The notes below the pieces were generated by a model. It was given only the letters and a program-made list of their open reading frames with translations, had not been told where the DNA came from and ran no database searches. Of a DNA stretch of 64,000 nucleotides, positions 16,768 through 32,047 are shown piece after piece (positions within the stretch are counted from its first letter, which is position 1; each line of letters begins with the position of its first letter). Where the stretch lies: contig RPRQ01000022.1 of assembly GCA_003818205.1 (NCBI GenBank), positions 71-64,070 on the forward strand, in the 5' to 3' direction. The translations under genes were made by a program, and so were the position numbers. This DNA comes from Bacteroidales bacterium (GTDB lineage Bacteria > Bacteroidota > Bacteroidia > Bacteroidales > Tenuifilaceae).

Positions 16768-17841
16768 ATGTTAACCAGTATGTCAAAACTACTATCACCG
16801 CTCAAAATAAGAGATATTGAATTAAGGAATCGGATTGTAATCTCCCCGATGTGCATGTATTCTGCTGTTGATGGGTTCGCCAACGACTGGCACTTAGTGC
16901 ATCTTGGAAGCCGTGCAACAGGTGGAGCAGGATTAGTTATACAGGAGGCAACTGCTGTTTCTCCTGAAGGTAGAATTTCGCCCGGTGATCTAGGGTTGTA
17001 TAACGAGGGGCATATCGAAATGCTACAGAGAATCACCTCATTTATTCACAGTCAGGGAGCAATTGCAGGGATCCAAATTGCTCACGCCGGAAGGAAAGCA
17101 AGCTGCGCTAAACCATGGGATGGAGGAAAACAGGTTAAGAAAACGGATGGTGGTTGGACAACCGTTGCTCCTTCAGCACTTCCTTTTTATCCCGATGATG
17201 AAGCGCCACAAGCGCTTGATATAGATGGAATACAGAAAGTAATCGCTGATTTCCAAAATGCTGCCAAACGTGCACTAAAAGCAGGTTACAAGCTGGTTGA
17301 AATACATGCAGCGCACGGATATCTGGTTCACCAGTTTCTTTCACCCTTGAGCAACCATCGAACCGATAGTTATGGCGGTAGCTTCGAGAATAGGATACGC
17401 CTGTTGCTTGAAATCGTAGAAGGAGTAAGGGGTGTTTGGCCTTTATATCTGCCTTTGTTTGTGCGTATATCGGCCACCGACTGGGCTGAGGGAGGTTGGA
17501 ACCTCGATGAGTCGGTAAAACTTGCAGCAATACTGAAAGATAAGGGTGTTGACCTAATCGATACCTCATCAGGAGGAATGGTGCACAATGCAAAGGTTAC
17601 CGTTGGTCCGGGTTATATGGTTCCTTTTGCGGAGCGTATCAAAAAAGAGTCAGGCATTTTAACGGGCGCTGTTGGTTTGATAACCCAAGCGCAGCAAGCC
17701 GAGGATATTTTACAAAAAGGGGAGGCTGATCTAATCCTTATAGCAAGGGAATCGCTCAGGAATCCATATTTTGCAATAAACGCTGCAAAAGAGCTTGGTG
17801 ATGAGCATAAATGGCCTCTTCAATATCTTAGAGCGAAATAG
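16768..17841 (+). CDS. namA: NADPH dehydrogenase, Old Yellow Enzyme family (YqjM/NamA type)
   Basis: The segments LRNRIVISPMCMYS, DWHLVHLGSRATGGAGLVIQEATAV, HAAHGYL.HQFLSP and NHRTD.YGGS are present. The true start may be the ATG at 16780. Confidence 0.85.
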   Translation: MLTSMSKLLSPLKIRDIELRNRIVISPMCMYSAVDGFANDWHLVHLGSRATGGAGLVIQEATAVSPEGRISPGDLGLYNEGHIEMLQRITSFIHSQGAIAGIQIAHAGRKASCAKPWDGGKQVKKTDGGWTTVAPSALPFYPDDEAPQALDIDGIQKVIADFQNAAKRALKAGYKLVEIHAAHGYLVHQFLSPLSNHRTDSYGGSFENRIRLLLEIVEGVRGVWPLYLPLFVRISATDWAEGGWNLDESVKLAAILKDKGVDLIDTSSGGMVHNAKVTVGPGYMVPFAERIKKESGILTGAVGLITQAQQAEDILQKGEADLILIARESLRNPYFAINAAKELGDEHKWPLQYLRAK

Positions 17842-17913
17842 TTTTTTCCATTCTGAATAGATAAACTAAAGGATTGCCCTTAAAAAATGGACAATCCTTC
17901 GTTCTAAAATTAT

Positions 17914-18687
17914 CTATATCTTCTTCCCAATATAGAATACATAGCCATAGTACTCTTTATACTTGAAGTATAATTGAGTTTCGTGCCTTTCGCTCGCTAT
18001 GAACTCTTCAGCAGTTTTATTCCCTTCATATTTCTTAAGGAAGATTTCCTGCGCCTTAGCCTGCGGAGTATAGAAATGCTCTATCCAGCAATTTTCGGGT
18101 AGAATAAATGCGGCAACAGGGATATACCCAGTTTTTTGCATTTGGTTAACCTTATTAGGAATAGTATCTATGCCCGAATAAGCATTTTGCCAAAACTCAT
18201 CTATTTCAGTAGGCCTTTCATCGGTAAACCAGGATGCCTCGGAAACAGCAATGTAGCCTCCCGTTTTCAGGAATTTACGCCACTCATTCAAGCCCCGTTC
18301 AAAACCGATATTATAGATTGCTCCTTCAGACCAGATAAGGTCTAACTCTTCACTCTGAAAAGGAAGGTTGTCCATCGAACCTACGACACCTTTTACTCTA
18401 TCTTGAAGATTCAGCTTAATGGCATTCAAGTTGAACAGTTCGATAAACTTAGGAAACAGGTCGATACCTGCAATATGGCCCAATGCATGCTGTGCTAGAA
18501 CCATTGTCTGACCGCCTGTTCCGCAGCCAATGTCGGCAATAAGGGATTCGTTGGTAAGATTATCGATAAAATTCAATGCTTTAATGGTTACTTCGGGGCT
18601 ACCTGGCCCTTGTCGTACTACACTTGAAAAATATTCGCAGATTAAATTGACATCGAAATCGTGAATTGATTTATTTTCGTTACTCAT
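17914..18687 (-). CDS. Class I SAM-dependent methyltransferase
   Basis: Motif I is [12 protein letters not shown], followed by the downstream [11 protein letters not shown]. Confidence 0.75.
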
Positions 18688-19040
18688 GATTTTAATTTTT
18701 TTTTATTGTTGAAATCAGGGTATAGGAATATAATATATCCTTTACCAAGCCTCAAAATATATTAATATATTGAAATGAAAATAACTCCGACAAGATAATG
18801 TCAGAGTATATTAAAGGGATAACCAAAGGCAGAATACCAAAGGTTATTTACTTCACCAAATCCTTCTTAGAATTAAACATCCAATGTTTTTAGATTGAGC
18901 AAAGGTAAAGATTTTTTTATTATGTTGATTATTTACTAAATTTTGTTCACTTTTTAAGCTGTGGTAGTAAGCAATTAAAACAAATTATTAGTTGACAGTT
19001 AACACCTGCCAGACCGGTAGGCAGGGTTAATGGTTCACGG

Positions 19041-19096
19041 TAACCTCTAACATATCTACTTGTCAGCAAAGGCAAAATGATTAACTTTGTAAATAG
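19041..19096 (+). promoter_or_regulatory. Second copy of the promoter-like module (ends TAACTTTG)
   Basis: The sequence is aacctctaacatatctacttgtcagcaaaggcaaaatgattaactttgtaaatag, about 120 nt upstream of the ATG at 19215. Confidence 0.4.
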
Positions 19097-19214
19097 AAAA
19101 CTGCTATGTAGAAACGGCGATTTTGCTGAGCGGGAGAACCTTTGGGATTGTTAAGTACAATAAACCAGAACCTCTAATTAAATTGGCAGTATTGGTCAAA
19201 GTAAAAAGGTATAA

Positions 19215-19697
19215 ATGAAAAAGGACAAATTATTATCTAGACTCAAGCAGCTTTATTTGCTTGAATTCTGTAATATCTTTTTATTGCCATTTGTTTTTTG
19301 GCTATTCGGGCAACCACACAATCATGTGTTGGGTCAAAATACAATTGTGGCAATGGCATTGAATGGAGTCTTGCTGCTAGAAGGGAGTTATCTTTGGTTT
19401 CGTATTAGCCGAAAATTGAGATTCAAAGAACAATTTGATTTTGGGAGAACTTTTAAAATGCTAAAGATTTTGAATTTTGGGCTTCTGGCATTGACCATAA
19501 TCATCTTTATTGTTAACCCATTTCAAGGGGCTTATGACAAAATTGGGACAACACTATTTTTGTTACTTGCTGTATTAGAGCATATAAACTATTTTGAGAT
19601 TCAGCTTATGTACGACAATAGTAACGACCTAAAATATATAAGACAATACAGACGATTTAAGGTTGCTAAATTGAAAAGGCTAATGGCTAAGGTTTGA
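19215..19697 (+). CDS. Small membrane protein (about 4 TM), unknown function
   Basis: The call rests on the hydrophobic segments only. Confidence 0.4.
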   Translation: MKKDKLLSRLKQLYLLEFCNIFLLPFVFWLFGQPHNHVLGQNTIVAMALNGVLLLEGSYLWFRISRKLRFKEQFDFGRTFKMLKILNFGLLALTIIIFIVNPFQGAYDKIGTTLFLLLAVLEHINYFEIQLMYDNSNDLKYIRQYRRFKVAKLKRLMAKV

Positions 19698-20040
19698 TAA
19701 AGCCACTACCCATGTAAGACATGGCTATAAGCAAATAAAACAAAATTTAATAGCTGATGGTTGATACCACCCTATGGGGTTATTTCACACAACAGATAAC
19801 ATACTTCGGGCTTCCGACTTCTAACAGCATCACAGCAAAACCTCTCCCCACTATCCAATATACCACCCCAACGGGGGTTTTAGCATTGCGACAGGCTGCG
19901 TTTTACCGATATTTCAGCCCTACGGGCTTACCTCTGACAGCTGATAACCGACAACCGATAACAGGCAATAGACTTCTGTCTTCCACATACATCATAGTAA
20001 AACATTATCACAGCAACAATTCAGAACACTTTTAGCCATA

Positions 20041-20090
20041 ACCCCAATGGGTGATTTTTACGCATTAAACCTATTTGTAACTTTGTCTCA
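20041..20090 (+). promoter_or_regulatory. Second copy of the ccccaatgggtgatttt...TAACTTTG module
   Basis: It is nearly identical to 4271-4318, with TAACTTTG at 20068-20075. Confidence 0.4.
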
Positions 20091-20362
20091 ACAAATTTTT
20101 GCAAGTACTAGCGTGGCGAAAAGTGTAAAATAAACAAAAAGACTTTAGTTTAAATTGGCGTTTAAATCTTATTGTTTTCTTAGTGTTCCCGCCTGCCAAA
20201 GTAAAAGACTTTTTACGGCGGGCAGGTTAGTGCCTTAGTGGCTAAAGAAAGATTTGCCACTAAGGCGCAAAGTCACAAAGCATCGCTAAAACAAGTTGTA
20301 ACGCTAAACTACACCAACAAAAATACTAAGCTATTTGGGGCTAATATAAAGGAGGATACTTT

Positions 20363-21205
20363 ATGCCAGTCGTTTATAAAGGATCAAATAATATTCAATC
20401 AGATGCTGATGGTATTGTAGGAATTATTGCACTTGTAGGAGTTGCTATTGGAATTGGTGCTATTATATTTATTGCAATATCTTTATATACCTCAGTAGTA
20501 TCCTTGACTTTTCCTGCATTTATAAATGCACTTACCGTCTTTTCACCTACAAGCACTTCATCATTAGCGAATTGTTTCATTATGGCACTTGAGGGAATGC
20601 TAGCAGGTTATTTTATAGGATGTATGAAGAAATCGTTAATTCTAGAAAACATATCCTTTTACTTTTTCTTGTCAGAACTATTTTCATTTGATGCTTTTAA
20701 GAGCGATCTCAATTTTATATCAACCATGATTCTATCGCTTTTAGTGGGTGGTACTGTGGGTTGGATTGCTGGAGCAAGTGGTACAATAGGGTTAACTACA
20801 TTTTTATACACCGATTCACATAGTATTATTCATAATATTTTAGAAACATCACAACCTATTGTAGCAATTGTAATGCATGGGGGTGCAGGTGGAGCAGGTT
20901 CAAGCGGAGGTTTTTTTTGGGTTGTACTAATTATTCTAATTTTTGTATTTCAAGGGATTATAGTTGGTGCTGCAAGCGGGCTTACTTTCGGAGTTTTGAT
21001 GGGGAGCTTAAATGGTGCGATAAAAGGAGGAGCTCTTAAGTACGTTTGCAGCCTTATTGTGGTATCCGATAAACCTGAAACTAAAAGGGAAATAACCTGG
21101 AGATCGTCAAAAAAAGGTTTTATAGAAGGTGCTATTGTGGGCGGAATTGTTGGTCTTATTCAAGGATTATTAACTTCAATAGCATTTTATGATAAAAACA
21201 AGTGA
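20363..21205 (+). CDS. Glycine-zipper-rich polytopic membrane protein, unknown function
   Basis: Repeated GxxxG/GG-rich hydrophobic segments are present (GIVGIIALVGVAIGIGAI, HGGAGGAGSSGGFFWVV, GAIVGGIVGLIQG). A strong AAGGAGGA lies at 20349-20356. Confidence 0.45.
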   Translation: MPVVYKGSNNIQSDADGIVGIIALVGVAIGIGAIIFIAISLYTSVVSLTFPAFINALTVFSPTSTSSLANCFIMALEGMLAGYFIGCMKKSLILENISFYFFLSELFSFDAFKSDLNFISTMILSLLVGGTVGWIAGASGTIGLTTFLYTDSHSIIHNILETSQPIVAIVMHGGAGGAGSSGGFFWVVLIILIFVFQGIIVGAASGLTFGVLMGSLNGAIKGGALKYVCSLIVVSDKPETKREITWRSSKKGFIEGAIVGGIVGLIQGLLTSIAFYDKNK

Positions 21206-21422
21206 GTTTTCAGCCCAAAGCTAAGAGTAAACTAATTGCCTAACCTTAATAAGTTGGGGTTTATTTATAATAGATACGAAAGTTTTAGATGTCACGGTCT
21301 TCAACCGATCAAAGCATGCTCGATAGATTCAAGTCCTCAACAGCAGAGGACTTAGCCGAGGGGGAGAAGTGAACTAACGAAAAGTTTACTGATAGCAAGT
21401 GTCCGGACAGCATTGGTTTGCG

Positions 21423-22256
21423 CTATAGCTCCCCTCTCTCAAATTTTTCAATCATCTCGCCTGCAATACTTAAATTTAAAGAGTGTTGTGGAAGATTTCC
21501 TCTGGTGAACCACGCGGCATCTGCAATTTCTTTGTCATCAATAGAAATGGGCTGATTTTCATCCGCTTCAGCCACAAAACCAATCATCATTGAACCTGAA
21601 GGAGGCCAGGGTTGACTTTTATAGTATCGGATATTCTTAATATCCAACCCCACCTCTTCCTTCACCTCTCGTACTAAAGTCTCCTCAAGCGATTCGCCAA
21701 CATCAGCATACCCGGCAATTAATGAATACCAACTCCCGGAAAAATTTGAATTGCGAGCTAACAGTATTTTATTATTACAAACGATGACTACTATAACTGC
21801 CGGCGAAATTTTTGGATAAACAGTTGTTTTACAATTGGGACATACAATGGCTCTTTCATCAGGCTTATGTTGAGTTTTTGTCCCACATTTTCCGCAAAAT
21901 TTGTTTTGCGAGTACCAATTCATCAGATGGAATCCGACAATGCTGACCCATGCTATTTCCTGCTGCCTCGTAGTTCGGAAAAAACTGATTTCCTTATAAG
22001 CAAAATGGGGGTTATCTGCCATCAGGTTATCCCATATCAGAAAACACGGAACATCATTAAGGGTAAATAGGAATGTATTGTCTGATTTATCAGAGATTTC
22101 TAGAAAATCTCTTCTTTGTGGTATGTCAAATTCATCACCACTGGTTTTCAACAGCAACGAATCTCCATTATAATGAAGGATAAAATCGTTTTCTCCAATA
22201 TTTTTATTTGCGAGATAAAGATTATTGAAGCGGTGGGGAAATATTTCGTGAATCAT
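21423..22256 (-). CDS. nudC: NAD(+) diphosphatase (NADH pyrophosphatase), Nudix
   Basis: A zinc ribbon (CGKCGTKT..CPNC) is followed by the Nudix box GYADVGESLEETLVREVKEEVGL, then SQPWPFP-like QPWPPSGS. Confidence 0.8.
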   Translation of the reverse strand: MIHEIFPHRFNNLYLANKNIGENDFILHYNGDSLLLKTSGDEFDIPQRRDFLEISDKSDNTFLFTLNDVPCFLIWDNLMADNPHFAYKEISFFRTTRQQEIAWVSIVGFHLMNWYSQNKFCGKCGTKTQHKPDERAIVCPNCKTTVYPKISPAVIVVIVCNNKILLARNSNFSGSWYSLIAGYADVGESLEETLVREVKEEVGLDIKNIRYYKSQPWPPSGSMMIGFVAEADENQPISIDDKEIADAAWFTRGNLPQHSLNLSIAGEMIEKFERGEL

Positions 22257-22780
22257 TCTGATGGCTAATTTAATTCAAATTACAATTGTAATGATGTTTA
22301 ATCATGCGAAGATAGTAGCTTTGTATTAAAGTATTGATATCCCCCATTAATCTGAGGCTGTAATCAAATAAAACAAAAAATCATAGGGTTCGGCAGCAGT
22401 TAAATGCTTTCGTGTAGTTTAGAGCACTATATGGTATTTATTCTTTTCACTAAAAAATCAATAAGACTCAAAGTAGTTACTTATATTTCAACCCTACGGC
22501 TTAATTATAAACCTTATGCTTCTGACTCCTGAACTCTGATTTCCACCGCTAAGTGAAGTTTCCAAACTACGCTTTCATAATTGGTAGTCTTAGGCTCGCA
22601 TCATCATAACGACCGTCTTTGTCACCACAAAACGGTCAATTCTTATTGATAAACGTATTTGGGCGATGGCTCACGAATATAGAACCAATTTTGCCATGAC
22701 ATTACTCTAGTAATCAATTTTTCCCCTAAACTTTTAAGGAACTTCATTGTTTTTATAAAACACTAAAATAAATTAAATTT

Positions 22781-23329
22781 ATGAGAACAAACAAATCATC
22801 ATTCAAAACCATAGTTTATACAGCCTTATGCCTTACATTAATTGTTAATGATGTAAAAGCACAAGAGATGCATAAAATGGATGTCAACAAGGCCGTTTGT
22901 GTGCTTTATCCGACTCAGGGTAACAACGTTTCAGGAACAATAACATTCGAAACCACTGGAATAGGCGTAAGGGTTGTTGCAAATATCCATGGATTGACTC
23001 AAGGTAAGCATGGTTTTCATATACACGAGTGTGGCGATTGCTCAGCCGCTGATGGTAGTTCGGCTGGAGGTCATTTCAACCCAATGGGGAAAAGTCATGG
23101 AAGCCCAATGGAAATGATGCGGCATACGGGTGACATGGGGAATATTGAAGCTGATGCTAACGGAGATGCACATTTAGATTATACTGATAATATGATTTCT
23201 TTATCTGGAGAGTATTCTATAATAGGTCGTTCTATGATTATTCATAAAGCGGAGGATGACCTCAAAACACAACCCACTGGCAATGCAGGCGCGCGCATTG
23301 CTTGTGGTGTTATAGGTGTTGTCGAATAA
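22781..23329 (+). CDS. sodC: Periplasmic Cu/Zn superoxide dismutase
   Basis: A signal peptide is present, along with GKHGFHIHECGDC, GGHFNP, GDMGN and GNAGARIACGVIG. Confidence 0.9.
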   Translation: MRTNKSSFKTIVYTALCLTLIVNDVKAQEMHKMDVNKAVCVLYPTQGNNVSGTITFETTGIGVRVVANIHGLTQGKHGFHIHECGDCSAADGSSAGGHFNPMGKSHGSPMEMMRHTGDMGNIEADANGDAHLDYTDNMISLSGEYSIIGRSMIIHKAEDDLKTQPTGNAGARIACGVIGVVE

Positions 23330-23603
23330 TCCTCATTTCAACGTAATCTTGTGCGAAGGCAAAGGAGTGCTGGCAGACTATAGCGTAACTAAGGGATGGT
23401 TTACTAACACATCCAATACATTAAAGCCAAGTATTATGTTTTGACCTATGAATCAACTTTAATGGCTGTGTTTTTTATCGTATTGACATAAAAAAATGAT
23501 GAAAAACGGAAATTGTAATATCTGGAAATTCCCATGATTCAGCAACTAAAATTTATTTAACGACGGATATAAATACCACAAATTCAAAAATTTAGCAAAT
23601 AAG

Positions 23604-23650
23604 AGGCTGTCTCTAAAGTCGAACAAGACTGGAATAGACAGCCTTTTTTA
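23604..23650 (+). terminator. Hairpin plus T-run, about 275 nt downstream of sodC
   Basis: aggctgtct..(inner agtc/gact)..agacagcct is followed by tttttt. Confidence 0.55.
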
Positions 23651-24471
23651 AGTTTGAGTAAAACTACCACCGGCTGAGCCAGTGGTTTTAATATCAGAGC
23701 CCCCTAAAGAGGGGAAATCAATTATTCTCATCATAACGTTCTTCATCTTCTTGACATTTTACATACCGCCTAAAACTCGCATTGGGAATACACATGCTAG
23801 CGTTTAATTCCTTAAACGACATTGATATATAATTATTGCTTATCATAAGGGCTAGGTTTTGAGCAAGCGGGTGGGAACGGCATCCGATGCCCGAAGGGCG
23901 AACTCAGCGAAGCTAAAACGGTGAACCAGAGCATGCCCTGATCGTAGGCAGGAAGCGAGAGGCAGCATTGCTTCGATTTGAACTTTTTTTGTTTCAAGAC
24001 AAAAAAAGGAAGGGGGCAGGGTCAAAGTCCCATTGGATTTTAGTCGGACAATAATGATTTTAAATAATCAATAACTCAAAAAAATGAAGTATATTTCAAC
24101 AAACAAAAAAGGAAACTATTCAGCAGTAGTCGAATTGAACAAAAACCACTGAAACACAGCCCGTCCCGATGTATCGGGAGTGGCAATTATAAAAAACGAC
24201 TGAGTATCATACGAAATATATAAAAATACGAACCTGCCCGCCGAGCTTAGGCAGGCGTGTCTCTGCGATGAGTAGTTACAAAATATAAACCGAAATCATT
24301 AATAATTGTTATGGCTATTGCAGCATCACCTCATAAAACAAGCCGAATTAAAGAAAGGTTTATAGAATGCTAAATGTAAACATCCAAATGAACAATTCAT
24401 CGTGGTTTCTTTTGGCATTATTATTCCAACGGGAAATACTTCATATATTTATCTACAGATATTAATTGTCT

Positions 24472-25698
24472 ATGAGTGAACTTGTAAAAATATTGGTTGC
24501 AGATGATTCGCCGTCTATTCAGCTATCGATTCAGAGCATGCTTATGGCAGATCAGTCTAACAAGTATTTAATACATAATGTTAATGATGGAAGGCAGGCC
24601 TGTATTATGGCTTTAAATGAAAGACCAGACCTTATTTTAATAGACATTGAAATGCCTGTTATGGATGGTATTGATGCCATAAAGAAAATAAAAACACACA
24701 ACCTTTTAAAAGATATCCCGATTATTGTTATGTCATCGAGTCGCAAATTTCAGGAGGCATTTATAGCTGGAGTCGATGATTTTTTGATTAAGCCTTTTAA
24801 TCAATACGAATTATTGCTCCGAATACAGCTTAATCTAAAGTTAGCCAATATCTCTGCTGAGTTAAAAAATCAGAATGAATTGCTAGTATTACAAAAGCAG
24901 GAGGTTACTCAGCAAAAAGAATTAATTGAAAAGCAACAAATAGATTTACTCTCGGGCATACGTTATGCAAGCTATATACAGAAAGCCATATTGCCAGAAG
25001 ATGTTCTTATTGATGAATTGTTTTCTTCGAATTTTATTCTTAACAAACCTAGAAGTATTGTTAGCGGAGATTTTTATTGGGTTACCCAAAAGAACGATCT
25101 TAAGTTTTTTGCTGTAGGAGACTGTACTGGACACGGTATTTCGGGAGCACTAATGACAATGGCAGGTATTGCTTTCTTAAACGAGATTGTTAATGATTAC
25201 AACGAGTACGAAGCAGATAAAATATTAAACGAGTTACGTTTAAGGGTTGAAAAACTTCTACATCAAAGAGGTACAGCAGGTGAAGCCTCTAATGGTATGG
25301 ATATTGCCCTTTGTGTTTATAACAGCAAAAAACGAATAATTCAATATGCTGGTGCAAATAATCCAATTTATATTATACATGCTGATAAATCATTAGATGT
25401 CTTTAAAGCCGACCGAATGCCTGTTGGTATTCATTTTAATCATGAACGTCCCTTTACTAGTAAAGAATGTATAATTAGTCAAGGTGATGAGGTATATCTA
25501 TTCTCAGATGGTTTTCCTGATCAATTTGGTGGATCAAACGGACAAAAATTCAGATATGATCAGTTTCGTGAACTTCTTATCAGGTGCTCTAGTTCACCTA
25601 TGAATGAACAGCTAAAGATATTGGAAAACACTCTCGATGATTGGATGATAGGATTTGAGCAAATAGATGACATCTTAGTTATGGGTATAAAATTTTAG
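24472..25698 (+). CDS. Response-regulator receiver fused to a PP2C/SpoIIE phosphatase (RsbU-like)
   Basis: The REC domain shows ILVADDS, LILIDIEMPVMDG and KP. The PP2C domain shows VSGDFYWV, GDCTGHGISGA, LFSDGFPDQ and DDILVMGIKF. ATG at 24472 is preferred over the tracked TTG at 24466. Confidence 0.85.
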   Translation: MSELVKILVADDSPSIQLSIQSMLMADQSNKYLIHNVNDGRQACIMALNERPDLILIDIEMPVMDGIDAIKKIKTHNLLKDIPIIVMSSSRKFQEAFIAGVDDFLIKPFNQYELLLRIQLNLKLANISAELKNQNELLVLQKQEVTQQKELIEKQQIDLLSGIRYASYIQKAILPEDVLIDELFSSNFILNKPRSIVSGDFYWVTQKNDLKFFAVGDCTGHGISGALMTMAGIAFLNEIVNDYNEYEADKILNELRLRVEKLLHQRGTAGEASNGMDIALCVYNSKKRIIQYAGANNPIYIIHADKSLDVFKADRMPVGIHFNHERPFTSKECIISQGDEVYLFSDGFPDQFGGSNGQKFRYDQFRELLIRCSSSPMNEQLKILENTLDDWMIGFEQIDDILVMGIKF

Positions 25699-25780
25699 TT
25701 GTCAATTTTTTCAACTAATTGTTAGCAACAAGTGTAAAAGGCAAGTACGAAACATGAAAATAAACCTATAAGTTGATTTA

Positions 25781-26296
25781 ATGAAAATTGATTGTATCTT
25801 TGCAGAAAATTTATTCACCTTTCATTACGCGAAAGAAAAGAACAATGAGTATGAAAGATTAATGGATATATGGACAGATGTTAGTTATTTACATGCTTAT
25901 GCAAAAAGAAACAAGGTAAAAAATATTTATGGATTTATTGATGACATATTGAAGTGTGCTGAAAAAATTCAAGACTTTTTGGACAACATTAGCCAAAACA
26001 AAGAACCTTTTGGTTCTTACTTTGAACCTTTACAACAATCAGAAAATGACAACAAAGTGCTCGCACTTCAAAAAGGAAAAATACGAAAAAATCAACTTCG
26101 TTTGTATGCAGTTAAAATAGATGCTAATTGTTTTGTAATAACAGGAGGTGCAATAAAAATGAGTCAAAAAATGGAAGACCACCCTGATACCGCAAATGAA
26201 TTGGAAAAATTGAAAAAAGCAAGAATCTATTTAAACCAAAATGGTGTATTTGACGAGGATTCTTTTTTTGAACTATTAAATGAAGAATATGACTAA
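25781..26296 (+). CDS. Putative toxin (RelE/HigB, Gp49-like C-terminal half) of a three-gene cassette
   Basis: LRLYAVKIDANCFVITGGAIKMSQKMEDHPDTANELEKLKKARIYL resembles the R.lY....g..v.L.g..KK....p..ei..A motif of Gp49/HigB-type toxins. The gene overlaps the next one by 17 nt. Confidence 0.4.
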   Translation: MKIDCIFAENLFTFHYAKEKNNEYERLMDIWTDVSYLHAYAKRNKVKNIYGFIDDILKCAEKIQDFLDNISQNKEPFGSYFEPLQQSENDNKVLALQKGKIRKNQLRLYAVKIDANCFVITGGAIKMSQKMEDHPDTANELEKLKKARIYLNQNGVFDEDSFFELLNEEYD

Positions 26297-26750
26297 CAAA
26301 GAAAAGTTTTTAGCCTTAGTTTCTAAAGAAAAAAACAACACTTTAGAAAAAAACAAAGAGCGAATCAAAAACAGAGCAATGTTGAGTGAATCGCAACAAA
26401 TTGCTATGAAGGTATTGAAGAAATTAGACGAGTTAGGGTGGACCCAAAAAAACTTGGCAAAAGCAATGGAAGTAAGTCCGCAACATGTGAATAAAATAGT
26501 TAGCGGAAAGGAAAACCTTACAATTGAAACTCAAATTAAATTGCAAAATATTCTTGATATTCCAGTATTAGCCAGTTATTATGAATCACGTTTGAAATCA
26601 ATTGAAGAATTGATTCTAACAGTTGAAAAGAAAGTTGAGCGCATCTATGCTACAACAAATCTAGTTCCTGTTAATTATCAAGATTCAAGAAAAATTAAAA
26701 TGGAATACGATACTTTATCAGGTGAGTACTCATATCAATTAGCTGTATAA
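26280..26750 (+). CDS. XRE-family HTH protein (putative antitoxin with a ~65-aa C-terminal extension)
   Basis: The HTH reads LGWTQKNLAKAMEVSPQHVNKIVSGKENLTIETQIKLQNIL. It shares one base between its stop codon and the next ATG. Confidence 0.7.
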   Translation: MKNMTNKEKFLALVSKEKNNTLEKNKERIKNRAMLSESQQIAMKVLKKLDELGWTQKNLAKAMEVSPQHVNKIVSGKENLTIETQIKLQNILDIPVLASYYESRLKSIEELILTVEKKVERIYATTNLVPVNYQDSRKIKMEYDTLSGEYSYQLAV

Positions 26751-27196
26751 TGAAAAAAGAAAATGCACAAATAGGTTTTGCGTTGTTAGGTATTAAGACT
26801 GAGCAATTTGCAGTTTTCGAAGAAAATTATAACCCTAAACAAGAAACCGGTTTGGGTTTAGAAATTCAATACAAAATAAACAAATCCAACAACCAAATTG
26901 GCGTTTTTTTAGGATTTGAATTTATTCAATCAAAAAAAGTATTTATTAAAGTAATTGTGAGTTGTCACTTCAAAATTGAAGAAAATTCTTGGAAGAGTTT
27001 TCTTCAAGAAAAAGAAACTAAGTTAGTTGTTCCAAGAGGTTTTCTTGAACACCTAGCAATGATTGCTACAGGTACAACTAGAGGTGTTTTATTTGCAAAA
27101 ACAGAAGGAACCGAGTTTTCAAAATTTATCATCCCAACTTTAAATGTTGCCAAAATGATAAAAGAAGATGCCATATTCGAAATAGGGAATGAATAG
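26750..27196 (+). CDS. Possible SecB-like chaperone
   Basis: At 148 aa, the order of segments parallels E. coli SecB. FALLGIKTEQFAVFE lines up with FQIQRIYTKDISFE. The central strands are VFIKVIVSCHFKIE. FIIPTLNVAKMI lines up with LAPVNFDALF. This is similarity by eye only. Confidence 0.4.
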   Translation: MKKENAQIGFALLGIKTEQFAVFEENYNPKQETGLGLEIQYKINKSNNQIGVFLGFEFIQSKKVFIKVIVSCHFKIEENSWKSFLQEKETKLVVPRGFLEHLAMIATGTTRGVLFAKTEGTEFSKFIIPTLNVAKMIKEDAIFEIGNE

Positions 27197-27459
27197 TTGC
27201 AATTTACGAATTAATTAAAACACTCGTTGCCAACATAGATTCACTGATTATGAAAGAGATGTAATACCAAACTGCTAATATGATATTGAAAATAATTATG
27301 TTAGCGAATCGGTATAAATTAGAAAATCTGTGAACAAAGCGAAGCGATTTCATGAACACCTTATAAAAAATGACAATTTGTGAATAATCAGTGGCAATAT
27401 TTACTGTAAAGACAGACTCTAATTAACTGGTAGATTTTTTTTGTATTTTAAACTATTTT

Positions 27460-29313
27460 ATGAGAACAGTTAAAGGACTTGTTTTGAGATTATGGTTTCC
27501 AAAAATTAATTTTCAGAAGCGAAGATTTGCGAGTTCTCTTTTATATCCTGGGGCATTTTTTCAGCTACCTATAACCCAATTATTATTACTCTTACTCCTT
27601 GTTTTGCCAATATTTGTCAATGGGCAAGAAAGTATAAATGAATTTGAAGTTTTAGCCAATGAGTATCTAAATCAAGGGAAATACAAACAAGCTGCGGAAT
27701 CTTTCAACAAATCAGGCTACGATTATCGGAATAGAGGGAATAAAAGGAAGGCTGCCGATGTATTTGAGAAAGCGTATAAACTTTTCGATAAAGAGGGTAA
27801 CGATAATGTATCAATCGAAATCAGTAACAACCTAGGCATAGTATATCTCGACGAAAATAAATACGCAAACGCATACACTGCTTTCTCCAATACGTTAAAA
27901 CATGCTCGAAGAGTAAAGGATACGACCGAAATATTTAATTCATTAATCAATGTAGGTAGTTTAGCTATTGAATTATCATTATATTCCAATGCTATTGATA
28001 AAGTGAATGAAGCGCTAGGGATAGCAAAAGAACGGAACAATAATAAATATTTAAAAGAATGTTACAGTTTACTTGCAAGGAGCTATGAGAGAATTGGAAA
28101 TACTTCAAGTGCAAACGAGTTTTACAAGCTATACTCGATTATTGATCAGCAAATTAATAATATTGAGCCTGAAGAAATAAGTTCAGCTTCGAATAATAAG
28201 TTTAGCATATTGAAAAAAGAGAGGCAGATAGCAGAAATTCGACCAAAATTTAAAAATGGAGAATTGAGGTTAACTCCAGATTCAATGGCAAGGATATCAC
28301 AATTACTTCAACAAATGTTAACGCAAATAGGGCTTCGTAACTCACAGCTCAGACAGAAAGAGATACAACTACAGTACGAGAAACATATACGCAGAACCCT
28401 TATTATTGGAATTATTGTAGTTTTAATCTTCCTGGTCATACTCGGTTTTTTACTCAGACAGAAACAGCTCTATAATAAAATATTAAAGCAGCAAAAGGAG
28501 GAAATTACGCAACAGCGAAATAAACTCGATGTTCAGAATAAAAAAATAACAGACAGTATTTACTTCGGGTTACGTATTCAACAGGCTATTTTACCAAGAA
28601 TGAAAGAATTAAATAAGGTCTTTGAAACATTACTTATTTATAAGGCAAAGGATATAGTGTCAGGCGATTTCTATTGGTATCACGAATCAATTATTGATGA
28701 AGTAACATATCATTTTATTGCTGTAGTAGATTGTACTGGGCATGGCGTGCCAGGCGCTTTTATGTCCATTATTGGAAACAGGATACTTAACGAGATTATA
28801 ATAGAACGTAGAATTTTTAACCCCTCTGAAATTTTAATTGAAGTCAATAAGCTTCTCAGGAGGGATCTGGAACAGGACAACAATAAAACAATAAGCGGAA
28901 TGGATATCGCTCTGTGTCGGATTTCTTTTAACAATGGATATAACGAACTTGCTTTTTCAGGAGCTAAACGTGAGATTATCATATATAAAGCGAATACTGG
29001 TACACAGGAAATAATACATGGAGATAAATTATCGATTGGTTGCTTAACATCTGGGAAAACAAATATCTTTAATGAAACGAAAAGAGATATTGATGCTGGT
29101 GATATTATTTTTATGTTTACCGATGGTATTATCGACCAGCCAAATATAGAAAGAAAACGATTTGGCACAGAACGATTTATGAACTTTATAGCTGAAAATA
29201 TTGATTCCTCTATGGATAATATTGAATCGTCTCTTGAGTCATTAATTGACAATTATAAGGAGTCGGAAGAACAGAGGGATGATATTACTGTTTTGGGTAT
29301 TAAATTGAAATAG
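27460..29313 (+). CDS. Transmembrane TPR-sensor PP2C/SpoIIE phosphatase (SiaA/RsbU-like)
   Basis: It has a signal/anchor, TPR-like repeats and a TM helix (TLIIGIIVVLIFLVILGFLL). PP2C motifs follow: VSGDFYWY, VDCTGHGVPGA, MFTDGIIDQ and DDITVLGIKL. Confidence 0.85.
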   Translation: MRTVKGLVLRLWFPKINFQKRRFASSLLYPGAFFQLPITQLLLLLLLVLPIFVNGQESINEFEVLANEYLNQGKYKQAAESFNKSGYDYRNRGNKRKAADVFEKAYKLFDKEGNDNVSIEISNNLGIVYLDENKYANAYTAFSNTLKHARRVKDTTEIFNSLINVGSLAIELSLYSNAIDKVNEALGIAKERNNNKYLKECYSLLARSYERIGNTSSANEFYKLYSIIDQQINNIEPEEISSASNNKFSILKKERQIAEIRPKFKNGELRLTPDSMARISQLLQQMLTQIGLRNSQLRQKEIQLQYEKHIRRTLIIGIIVVLIFLVILGFLLRQKQLYNKILKQQKEEITQQRNKLDVQNKKITDSIYFGLRIQQAILPRMKELNKVFETLLIYKAKDIVSGDFYWYHESIIDEVTYHFIAVVDCTGHGVPGAFMSIIGNRILNEIIIERRIFNPSEILIEVNKLLRRDLEQDNNKTISGMDIALCRISFNNGYNELAFSGAKREIIIYKANTGTQEIIHGDKLSIGCLTSGKTNIFNETKRDIDAGDIIFMFTDGIIDQPNIERKRFGTERFMNFIAENIDSSMDNIESSLESLIDNYKESEEQRDDITVLGIKLK

Positions 29314-29321
29314 ATAGAAAA

Positions 29322-29843
29322 GTGGCTTTATCAAGTACATATAACGATTTATTAATCTCGTATTACGGGCCTTTCAGTATGCGAATAATCTCCACAATTG
29401 GTAAACATCTCACTGAAAACATAAATGCATCAGAAATTACGAAGATGAAGCTGTATAGGGTGTTTATTGAACTCTGTCAAAATGTTGCACGCTATTCAGC
29501 TGAAAGACATGTTTTACTTGATAGCTCAATTATTGGTGTAGGAACCATTCATATTCAAAATAACGACTTGTATTTCAAATGCACAACAGTAAATAGGATT
29601 TTAAGCGAACATCAAAATGTATTAATAAAGAATTGTCGTGAAATTAACAGCTCTACAAAAGAAGACCTGAAAAAAAGAAAAGAAAAGTTTCGAAAAGAAT
29701 CTACTATTCTTGATACTGGAGCTCACATTGGTTTAATAGCAGTATGCTTGTATTCAGAAAATCAATTTGAATTCGACGTTACAGATAACCCTGAAAACAG
29801 TGCTACCTATTTTTCAATTACTGCAACTATCAATAAAACATAG
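29322..29843 (+). CDS. SiaB-like small protein kinase (RsbW/GHKL-type)
   Basis: Its position between a PP2C gene and a DUF1987 gene fits. It has an N-box-like FIELCQNVARYS and a G-box-like LDTGAHIGL. The GTG start lies 8 nt after the upstream stop, so the start is uncertain. Confidence 0.55.
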   Translation: MALSSTYNDLLISYYGPFSMRIISTIGKHLTENINASEITKMKLYRVFIELCQNVARYSAERHVLLDSSIIGVGTIHIQNNDLYFKCTTVNRILSEHQNVLIKNCREINSSTKEDLKKRKEKFRKESTILDTGAHIGLIAVCLYSENQFEFDVTDNPENSATYFSITATINKT

Positions 29844-29918
29844 AATGCAACGATCATATCTTTTCAAAATATAAATTATCTTTACAAAACGGAAAGAAAT
29901 CATTAAATAACAAGTAGA

Positions 29919-30308
29919 ATGGAAAGCCTATATATCAATAGTTATCCCGATTTGGTTTTTTTCCCCATTGTTGATTTTAAATACCAAACTGGGGTGTGTG
30001 AAATTTCAGGTGAATCGTACATGGAGGATACTTATAGTTTTTATGAACCTGTAATTATCTGGCTAAGGGAATATATGCAGGAGAAAAAACCAATCATCTT
30101 TAATGTTAAGTTAACCTATTTCAATACCAGCTCATCCAGATTTATACTTGAAATGCTTGATTTATTCAAAAAATACCTGAATGAAGGGAATCAAGTTATT
30201 GTTAACTGGTACTATAAAAAGGACGATCCCGATATGTTAACAGAAATCAACGAATTAATCGATGAGTCTGGAGTCGACATCAATATTTATACAGTAACCC
30301 TTCAATAA
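29919..30308 (+). CDS. SiaC-family / DUF1987 regulatory phosphoprotein
   Basis: At 129 aa, it carries the hallmark KLTYFNTSSSRFILEML and the C-terminal WYYKKDDPDM. Confidence 0.75.
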   Translation: MESLYINSYPDLVFFPIVDFKYQTGVCEISGESYMEDTYSFYEPVIIWLREYMQEKKPIIFNVKLTYFNTSSSRFILEMLDLFKKYLNEGNQVIVNWYYKKDDPDMLTEINELIDESGVDINIYTVTLQ

Positions 30309-30466
30309 TAACTTTTTAACGAATTTACTCGTCAACTTATCCGCTATTGGTAACCCAAAACTTACCCTAATTGCCTAATTATCAAATTATCAAATTGTCA
30401 AATTATCATATTAATAAATTTTCAAATTAAACATCCTATCTTTGCGCCCCGAAAGAGATTCCTAAA

Positions 30467-32047
30467 ATGAGTTTAGAAAAAGAGATAAAAAGGCGTAGAA
30501 CCTTTGCCATTATTAGCCACCCCGATGCTGGTAAAACCACTTTAACCGAAAAATTGCTTCTTTTTGGGGGGGCAATCCATATTGCGGGTGCGGTAAAAAG
30601 TAATAAGATTAAGAAAACCGCAACCTCCGACTTTATGGAGATTGAGCGTCAGCGCGGTATTTCGGTTTCGACCGCCGTAATGGGTTTTGAGTATAAAGAT
30701 GTCAAGATAAATATCCTCGATACCCCTGGCCACGAGGACTTTGCTGAGGATACCTACCGTACGCTAACAGCTGTAGATAGCGTAATCATTGTAATCGATC
30801 AAGCTAAAGGCGTTGAGACGCAAACCCGCAAGCTGATGAACGTTTGCCGGATGCGAAACACTCCGGTAATTGTATTTATCAATAAGATGGATCGAAATGG
30901 TAAAGATCCATTCGAGCTACTCGATGAGATTGAAAGCGAGCTGAAGATTAAGGTTCGCCCATTAAGCTGGCCCATCAGTTCTGGTCCAACATTTAAGGGG
31001 GTTTACAACCTTTTTGAGCAGAAGCTTTGCCTATTCTTCTCGGAGGACAAGCAATCATTATCCGATGATGTCATTAAATTTGATGATGTTAATAGCCCTG
31101 AGCTCGATCAGTATATCAAACCCTTCACCGATAGATTTAGAGAGGAATTGGAGCTCGTTAAAGGTGTCTATCACGATTTTGAAATTAACAGGTATTTGAG
31201 CGGAGAGCTCGCTCCCGTATTCTTCGGTAGCGCATTGAATAATTTTGGGGTACAGGAGCTGCTCGATTGCTTTATCCAAATTGCACCACATCCACGACCT
31301 ACGGTTACTGATGCTCGTGAAATTTCACCATTTGAGGAGAAATTAACAGGCTTCGTTTTCAAGATATTCGCCAATATGGATCCAAACCACAGGGATCGAT
31401 TGGCTTTCCTAAAGATATGCTCTGGTACTTTTGAAAGGAATAAGTTCTTTCACCATGTAAGGCTCGATAAGAATTTCAAATTCTCAAGTCCAAACGCCTT
31501 TATGGCCGATAAAAAATCGATTGTCGATTTTGCATATCCAGGCGATATCATTGGTCTGCACGATACAGGTAGCTTTAGAATTGGTGATACGCTAACCGAA
31601 GGAGAAATACTTAAATTTAAAGGTATCCCAAATTTTTCACCCGAGCTATTCCGCTATATCGAGAATGCTGACCCAATGAAGTCAAAACAACTTGCGAAGG
31701 GTGTCGATCAGCTAATGGACGAAGGGGTTGCTCAGCTATTTATCCAGAAATCTAATGGCCGTAAGATTATTGGAACCGTTGGTGCGCTCCAGTTTGAGGT
31801 CATTCAGCATCGCTTGGAGCATGAGTATAGCGCAACCTGTAGGTACGAATCAATCAGCTTGCATAAGGCATGCTGGATTGAGAGCGATAATAAGACCCAA
31901 ATTGAAGATTTCCGCAAGCGTAAATTCAACAACCTTGCAGTTGATAAGCATGGTAGAGAGGTTTTTCTAGCCGATTCACCATACTCTTTACAAATGGCAC
32001 AGGAGAAATTTCCGGATATTAAATTCTATTTTACCTCGGAATTCTGA
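30467..32047 (+). CDS. prfC: Peptide chain release factor 3
   Basis: [37 protein letters not shown] and NKMDR are present, and the full length (526 aa) fits. Confidence 0.95.

Follow-up and report, generated by a model that had tools for sequence, protein, structure and literature searches.

A putative toxin-antitoxin-chaperone cassette inserted in a PP2C/SiaC operon of a Bacteroidales bacterium

The cassette and the operon that it interrupts

A stretch of 64,000 nucleotides (nt) from a Bacteroidales bacterium (assembly GCA_003818205.1, contig RPRQ01000022.1, positions 71 to 64,070 of the forward strand), hereafter called the window, was analysed. Three short co-directional genes lie in it between two PP2C phosphatase genes, and their products matched proteins of a Bacteroidales metagenome-assembled genome (locus tags EHM93_08170-08180). 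In this order, they would encode a toxin (gene 1), an antitoxin (gene 2) and a SecB-fold chaperone (gene 3), and we consider it likely that the trio constitutes a HigBAC-type tripartite toxin-antitoxin-chaperone (TAC) module. PADLOC was the one library recognising all three proteins, through its models of the candidate PDC-M64 (E-values of 7e-6 to 2.7e-13). The cassette type is already listed there as an untested candidate, and the trio would be a very divergent Bacteroidota form of the known TAC module. The features of the locus are collected in Table 1.

Table 1. Features of the cassette and of the surrounding operon (positions in the window; aa, amino acids).
Feature	Position	Strand	Remarks
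21-nt motif AATAAACCTATAAGTTGATTT	25759..25779	+	Separated from the gene 1 ATG by 1 nt; left boundary of the conserved unit
Gene 1, putative toxin	25781..26296	+	171 aa; TAA stop codon at 26294-26296
Gene 2, putative antitoxin	26280..26750	+	156 aa; 153 aa from the second ATG (26289), the probable start
Helix-turn-helix (HTH) DNA-binding domain of gene 2, residues 47-96	26418..26567	+	Pfam HTH_3, E-value 1e-9
C-terminal tail of gene 2, residues 105-156	26592..26747	+	Candidate chaperone-addiction (ChAD) region
Gene 3, putative SecB-fold chaperone	26750..27196	+	148 aa
Conserved cassette unit, 1.44 kb	25759-27196		From the 21-nt palindrome to the gene 3 stop codon
Inserted segment, 1.76 kb	25699..27459	+	Lies between the end of the response-regulator PP2C gene and the start of the TPR-PP2C gene
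Left flank, response-regulator receiver plus SpoIIE/PP2C phosphatase	24466..25698	+	Pfam Response_reg and SpoIIE
Right flank, tetratricopeptide repeat (TPR) plus SpoIIE/PP2C phosphatase	27460..29313	+	Pfam; hydrophobic segment between the two parts
DUF6272 gene	29322-29843		Pfam; 3' of the TPR-PP2C gene
SiaC gene	29919-30308		Pfam; 3' of the DUF6272 gene

The initial annotation of this DNA, made from the sequence, had described three translationally coupled genes with a 17-nt overlap followed by a shared TAATG. The coordinates and the TAATG junction were confirmed, the stop codon of gene 2 occupying positions 26748-26750 and the ATG of gene 3 starting at 26750, with a 1-nt overlap. The overlap between genes 1 and 2, however, amounts to 17 nt only when gene 2 is read from its first ATG (26280), and to 8 nt from the second in-frame ATG (26289). 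Because nearly all homologues of gene 2 start with MTNKEKF, which corresponds to this second ATG, the true start of gene 2 is probably at 26289 and the 8-nt overlap is the more likely one. The trio had also been described as clearly more AT-rich than the flanking genes. Its GC content (0.302) is indeed lower than that of the two PP2C genes (0.341 and 0.332) and of the window (mean 0.373), 1.3% of the 1416-nt segments of the stretch being as GC-poor, and the whole inserted segment shows a value of 0.296; relative to the flanks, however, the difference is modest.

The flanking genes belong to a four-gene operon (24466-30308) encoding the response-regulator PP2C phosphatase, the TPR-PP2C phosphatase, the DUF6272 protein and SiaC, which resembles the SiaABCD partner-switching system. 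Orthologues of the response-regulator PP2C protein (50-61% identity) share the same operon, which was contiguous in all relatives examined. In five out of five of these (four orthologue contigs and one metagenome contig) the two PP2C genes were found 0-73 nt apart, with no trio between them. The metagenome scan for the flanking PP2C protein provided a single true orthologue, the remainder being generic receiver domains, and the other relatives were obtained from a protein search and contig look-ups. Since the operon of the relatives is uninterrupted and homologous trios occur in unrelated neighbourhoods, the trio is an insert at this locus, as had been proposed, and not a core component of the PP2C operon. 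Neither target-site duplications nor terminal inverted repeats were found around the insert. The cassette splits the operon after its first gene, which may affect the expression of the downstream genes.

Predicted folds and families of the three proteins

Gene 3 provided the firmest structural assignment. A HMMER scan revealed a family of 1176 representative clusters, all of them stand-alone proteins of ~145 aa, and 150 of these clusters were used in the alignment for AlphaFold2. The resulting model, in which four long antiparallel strands lead into a long helix, showed a predicted local distance difference test (pLDDT) value of 96.1 and a predicted template modelling score (pTM) of 0.88, and all five models reached at least 95.4 pLDDT. 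In a Foldseek search against the PDB, the 13 best matches were all SecB-fold proteins. Among them were the SecB proteins of E. coli (1qyn) and H. influenzae (1fx3), with template modelling (TM) scores of 0.58-0.66, the M. tuberculosis TAC chaperone Rv1957 bound to a ChAD peptide (5mtw; TM 0.40-0.49), and two streptococcal proteins of unknown function (2o2a and 2hng). Below these matches the scores fell to hot-dog thioesterases (TM ~0.25). Sequence identity to the SecB-fold structures was 11-15%, and no match to Pfam SecB (PF02556) was obtained at E<=1 with gene 3 or with three distant homologues. The unbroken series of SecB-fold matches and the drop at the thioesterases argue that gene 3 encodes a predicted SecB-fold protein whose family is not part of Pfam SecB. 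The parallel with SecB that had been noticed segment by segment thus holds for the predicted fold, but not at the sequence or profile level. Gene 3 matched the PADLOC model PDC-M64C (E-value 2.7e-13), and its mean identity across loci is 55%.

Gene 2 was confirmed as an XRE-type HTH protein; the HTH_3 domain is followed by ~60 residues, close to the ~65-aa tail first reported. The best NCBIfam match was HigA (TIGR02607, 37.6 bits, under the cutoff of 47.7), the sole PDB sequence match was E. coli HigA (2icp, E-value 6e-4), and the PADLOC models PDC-M64B/C were matched with an E-value of 1e-12. The product of gene 2 is thus a putative HigA-like XRE-HTH antitoxin. Comparison of 30 loci gave a mean pairwise identity of 64% for residues 5-104, and 19% for the tail in 30 homologues. 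This tail was present in all 30 three-gene modules, with a length of 45-73 aa (median 51), and it is rich in aromatic residues (10.6% versus 4.5% in the core). The HTH protein of two-gene plasmid relatives, which carry no gene 3, has 101 aa and stops just past the HTH, without any tail. On a Persicobacter replicon, where the trio is complete, the HTH protein has 144 aa and an aromatic tail. Because the tail is absent from the two-gene relatives that lack gene 3, tail and SecB-fold gene seem to go together, a co-occurrence that fits the prediction of chaperone addiction. According to the literature, ChADs are C-terminal extensions that are variable and bind SecB through aromatic motifs (PMC5105189; bioRxiv 10.1101/2024.02.24.581848).

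The C-terminal half of gene 1 had been compared with Gp49/HigB toxins of the RelE fold, and a resemblance was found in the predicted structure. The best AlphaFold2 model showed a pLDDT of 86.6 and a pTM of 0.82 (52-62 pLDDT in the other four). The top six Foldseek matches of this model in the PDB, which were also the only significant ones, were HigB chains of the S. pneumoniae HigBA structures 6af3/6af4 (E-values of 2e-3 to 1e-2, probability 0.98-1.0, target-normalised TM 0.49-0.59). ParE2, HigB2 and BrnT appeared among the weaker, lower-ranked matches, and the search against viral structures yielded a single 127-aa match. The alignments with the HigB chains, which have 113-119 residues, span 142-152 columns, and the N-terminal strands and helices of gene 1 therefore appear to form an enlarged part of the same RelE/ParE fold, with no added domain. 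The ~90-aa unrecognised N-terminal extension that had been assigned to this protein is probably a misreading. In the RelE/ParE fold, an N-terminal strand and helices precede an antiparallel sheet of three strands, on which HigB/Gp49-type toxins carry conserved basic active-site residues. This region is also conserved in the two-gene relatives. Two helical segments (49-71 and 135-170) are atypical of HigB, and residues K98, R107 and K126 were invariant in an alignment of 29 diverse homologues. Gene 1 matched the PADLOC models PDC-M64A/B (E-values of 7e-6 to 1.5e-5).

When compared by eye, the segment LRLYAV...FVITGGAIKMSQKM of gene 1 parallels FRVLFF...ALTAFYKNQQKTP of M. tuberculosis HigB1, a pairing that no alignment tool confirms. 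It would set K126 opposite K95 of HigB1, the residue mutated in PDB 7awk, and it is offered as a lead only. (The HigB1 query sequence was verified against 7awk.) Matches to Pfam Gp49 (PF05973), HigB_toxin or RelE/ParE were obtained neither with gene 1 nor with 75 homologues and seven divergent homologues. Gene 1 is thus a putative HigB/Gp49-like member of the RelE/ParE superfamily by fold only, and this assignment is the weakest link of the argument.

Conserved motif, distribution and variant forms

Loci were collected using one genome per species; 32 were recovered, 28 of them with enough upstream sequence. The order of the trio was conserved in all 28, with the genes overlapping or abutting. 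The hosts belong to Bacteroidia, Flavobacteriia, Sphingobacteriia, Saprospiria, Cytophagia and Chitinophagia, together with a Prosthecochloris (Chlorobi), and distant relatives of gene 3 (~35% identity) occur in the same three-gene layout. Homology between loci starts abruptly 22 nt 5' of the gene 1 ATG and stops at the stop codon of gene 3; no conserved element was found 3' of gene 3 when the loci were compared.

The left boundary coincides with the motif AATAAACCTATAAGTTGATTT, an imperfect palindrome with the arms ATAAAC[CT]TA and TA[AG]GTTGAT, which was absent from the initial annotation. It was found at the same position (-22) in 29 of 30 three-gene loci, in 15 of them without mismatch, although the encoded proteins are only 45-70% identical. 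The motif occurs once in the window, against a chance expectation of 0.02. All four combinations of its two variable positions were seen, and the commonest would give a C-A mismatch in RNA. A reading of the motif as an RNA structure was discarded, since RNAalifold predicted no pairs and the commonest variant would contain that mismatch. The two-gene plasmids carry the same palindromic core 45-60 nt upstream of the start of their gene 1-like toxin, and in the Bacteroides faecis copy a perfect -7 box of the Bacteroides type (TATATTTG; consensus TAnnTTTG) follows the core after ~16 nt. The palindrome is probably the operator of the HTH antitoxin. Another perfect TAnnTTTG box was noticed inside gene 1 of the window (25793-25812, codons 5-8, GTATCTTTGCA), ~18 nt past the palindrome. 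This spacing resembles that of the B. faecis relative, and the box may simply reflect the conserved I-F-A codons.

Scans for sigma-70 promoters and for terminators remained at chance level, such models being ill-suited to Bacteroidota. Transcription of the cassette by read-through from the host operon or as a leaderless transcript is possible. The upstream neighbour is co-directional in 25 of 28 loci, a preference that points to biased orientation or to read-through expression.

The genomic neighbourhood was analysed for 27 contexts, with 103 flanking proteins. Subunits of type I restriction-modification (RM) systems, at five to six loci, and type IIG RM enzymes, at up to seven, were the families seen most often. 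Type I or type IIG RM genes are neighbours of the trio in ~12 of these contexts, and the other neighbours are housekeeping genes. In at least four type I loci the trio lies between hsdS, just upstream, and hsdR, whose start is 0-34 nt past gene 3; taken over five loci, hsdR starts ~0-45 nt past the gene 3 stop codon. The trio is thus a mobile cassette with a marked RM association.

Two variant forms were identified. The two-gene relatives reside on plasmids of B. faecis (CP103229.1), which is conjugative, and Phocaeicola vulgatus (NZ_CP103198.1), which is non-mobilizable. The B. faecis locus (26353-27466) adjoins a zeta toxin family gene, and the P. vulgatus locus (17512-21098) adjoins genes for a 3'-5' exonuclease and RhuM. 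The second variant was found in one Bacteroidaceae species with two alleles of gene 1, one intact (locus L004, 4997-5543) and one with an in-frame internal deletion (locus L001, 5435-5543, and four further loci), in which MKI plus the last 25 codons are left as a 28-codon remnant and neither the motif nor genes 2 and 3 are affected. Replacement of gene 1 in L001 by other genes was ruled out, the change being a clean in-frame internal deletion. The loss of gene 1 by itself would be expected if gene 1 were the harmful component.

Outside the cassette, the 1.1 kb preceding the response-regulator PP2C gene (23330-24465) contain several GC-rich hairpins and no + strand open reading frame of at least 50 aa, and no Rfam match was obtained in 20000-32000. 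In most relatives examined, the response-regulator PP2C gene is immediately preceded by a gene for a ~577-aa protein that lacks Pfam domains; no remnant of that gene is detectable at this place in the window.

Interpretation and comparison with known systems

The proposal of a Bacteroidota TAC-like module was largely supported: gene 3 has a predicted SecB fold, the best model of gene 1 is HigB-like, gene 2 is HigA-like, and its tail is absent where gene 3 is absent. In a module of this kind, gene 1 would be an enlarged HigB/Gp49-like toxin of the RelE superfamily, presumably a ribosome-dependent mRNase. Gene 2 would neutralise it and probably repress the operon through the palindrome at the start of gene 1. 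The variable, aromatic-rich tail would make gene 2 unstable unless held by gene 3, a SecB-fold holdase that would protect the antitoxin. In characterised TACs, a phage structural protein competes for the client groove of the chaperone, leading to the loss of the antitoxin and the release of the toxin, as is the case of lambda gpV for E. coli HigBAC. By analogy, titration of gene 3, for instance by a phage structural protein, might lead to loss of gene 2 and arrest of translation by gene 1. The 1.44-kb unit would be a mobile cassette that has inserted into the conserved Sia-like operon, between its two PP2C genes and in their direction.

Several results weigh against this interpretation. Single-sequence and profile searches with gene 1 gave no match in Pfam, NCBIfam, PHROGs or PDB sequences, and neither sequence nor profile matches in these four collections were found for gene 3; the profiles were built from 34-150 homologues, and divergent family members were also tried. 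The hhalign comparison of the gene 1 profile with M. tuberculosis HigB1 gave no signal, and that of the gene 3 profile with E. coli SecB gave a probability of 1%. The fold of gene 1 was confident in one of five AlphaFold2 models, its best Foldseek E-value (2e-3) is modest, and HigB1 of M. tuberculosis was missing from its top 50 Foldseek matches. The link between the tail and gene 3 draws on two two-gene comparators that are related to each other (toxins 74% identical). Upstream of gene 1, only the 22 nt next to the ATG are conserved, so that an autonomous promoter is not evident. Finally, the cassette in the window adjoins no recognisable defence gene, and two scans for gene 1 relatives detected none on viral contigs.

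The best-placed alternative is that of a selfish addiction cassette, acting in post-segregational or anti-deletion stabilisation and without a part in phage defence, whose positions would be tolerated insertion sites. The residence of the two-gene relatives on conjugative and non-mobilizable Bacteroidaceae plasmids, one of them beside a zeta toxin gene, agrees with this explanation, and so do the housekeeping genes that adjoin the cassette both here and at over half of the loci, as well as the persistence of toxin-deleted alleles. The frequency of RM genes next to the cassette is nevertheless high for random insertion, and antiphage activity has been demonstrated for HigBAC, CmdTAC and MqsRAC. 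We regard a purely selfish cassette as rather unlikely, bearing in mind that addiction and defence are not mutually exclusive roles.

A three-gene phage-defence system of the PDC-M64 type operating without chaperone addiction, in which gene 3 would act as sensor, adaptor or co-effector and gene 1 might not be an RNase, seems unlikely. It would account for the match of all three proteins to PDC-M64 models, for the relatives embedded in type I RM operons, for the lack of a sequence link between gene 1 and RNase toxins together with its extra helices, and for the fact that gene 3 is far more conserved than the tail that would be its ligand (55% versus 19% mean identity). However, the loci without a tail are precisely those without gene 3, and the fold of gene 3 matches SecB holdases and not enzymes. 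In addition, the chaperone of characterised TACs is at once sensor and stabiliser of the antitoxin, so that this alternative largely merges with the TAC module. The possibility that the trio provides accessory components of the PP2C/SiaC partner-switching operon, suggested by its co-directional position between the first two genes, is extremely improbable, given that the same operon lacks it in five out of five relatives, that homologous trios occur in ~28 unrelated contexts and that its GC content is below that of the operon genes.

If the trio is a TAC module, it provides the uncharacterised PDC-M64 with a HigBAC-like mechanistic reading. Surveys of TACs relied on SecB sequence profiles, and they miss a large family of Bacteroidota toxins and chaperones that only fold comparison recognises. 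This phylum includes major gut commensals, and few phage-defence or toxin-antitoxin systems have been characterised in it. The tail-less two-gene relatives and the toxin-deleted allele represent natural controls for chaperone addiction, and the 21-nt palindrome is a sharply defined cis-element and candidate operator. A wider proposal, which we consider speculative and unlikely as a whole, is that a SecB-fold family spread over the Bacteroidota (more than 1000 clusters at 50% identity, invisible to Pfam SecB) serves as a phage-protein sensor in TACs, and that the bounded 1.44-kb cassette inserts co-directionally inside operons, such as those of RM systems or the PP2C signalling operon described here, and may be expressed from the host operon, which would couple the release of the toxin to transcription there.

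Regarding known systems, the closest ones are the M. tuberculosis TAC (Rv1955 HigB1-Rv1956 HigA1-Rv1957) and HigBAC of E. coli NT1F31. The trio shares with them the toxin-antitoxin-chaperone order in a compact operon, an XRE-HTH antitoxin of ~150 aa whose C-terminal extension is variable and aromatic, a SecB-fold chaperone of ~150 aa, horizontal mobility and the existence of toxin-less 'AC' variants, and its putative toxin may likewise adopt a HigB/Gp49-type fold. Rv1956 has 149 aa with a 45-aa ChAD. In contrast to HigBAC, genes 1 and 3 escape the Pfam profiles for Gp49/HigB and SecB (PF02556), and a conserved 21-nt palindrome lies right next to the toxin start codon. Gene 1 exceeds M. tuberculosis HigB1 (125 aa) by ~45 residues; its helix 49-71 is extended, and it has two additional helices at the C-terminal end. 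Toxin-less 'AC' systems have been reported among TACs in the survey of Sala et al. (PMC3581621), in which SecB was defined by its Pfam family. Gene 3 falls outside that family, whereas the architecture, the chaperone fold, the antitoxin family, which in TACs is HigA, MqsA or HicB, and the C-terminal extension agree with those of TACs. The host phylum here is Bacteroidota, which is not named in the accessible portions of PMC3581621 and PMC5105189.

PDC-M64 is an untested phage-defence candidate of PADLOC (Payne et al., bioRxiv 10.1101/2024.01.29.577857), and its definition rests on its location within BREX, DISARM or type I RM systems. Its cassettes are FAM_00144>>FAM_00055 and FAM_00144>>FAM_01977>>FAM_00131 (supplementary file 8 of the same work), and the accessible portions of the text and supplements contain neither a functional description of it nor a mention of SecB. 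The A, B and C component models (hidden Markov models) were matched in cassette order, although distantly (E-values of 1e-5 to 1e-13), two-gene and three-gene forms exist in both cases, and relatives of the trio occur inside type I RM systems. The copy in the window differs in its location, since it sits in a signalling operon between two PP2C genes and not in a defence system.

The two-gene plasmid relatives encode a gene 1-like toxin of 183 aa (~32% identical) and an HTH partner that shares the N-terminal region and the HTH with gene 2; their palindrome is separated from the toxin start by 45-60 nt, whereas here it abuts the start codon. The E. coli antiphage systems CmdTAC and MqsRAC have the same three-part logic, in which a SecB-like chaperone guards the antitoxin and senses phage structural proteins. 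Their toxins, however, are an ADP-ribosyltransferase (CmdTAC) and MqsR (MqsRAC), and their chaperones are recognisable SecB homologues, whereas the trio described here combines a putative HigB-like toxin with a chaperone whose likeness to SecB was found in its predicted fold.

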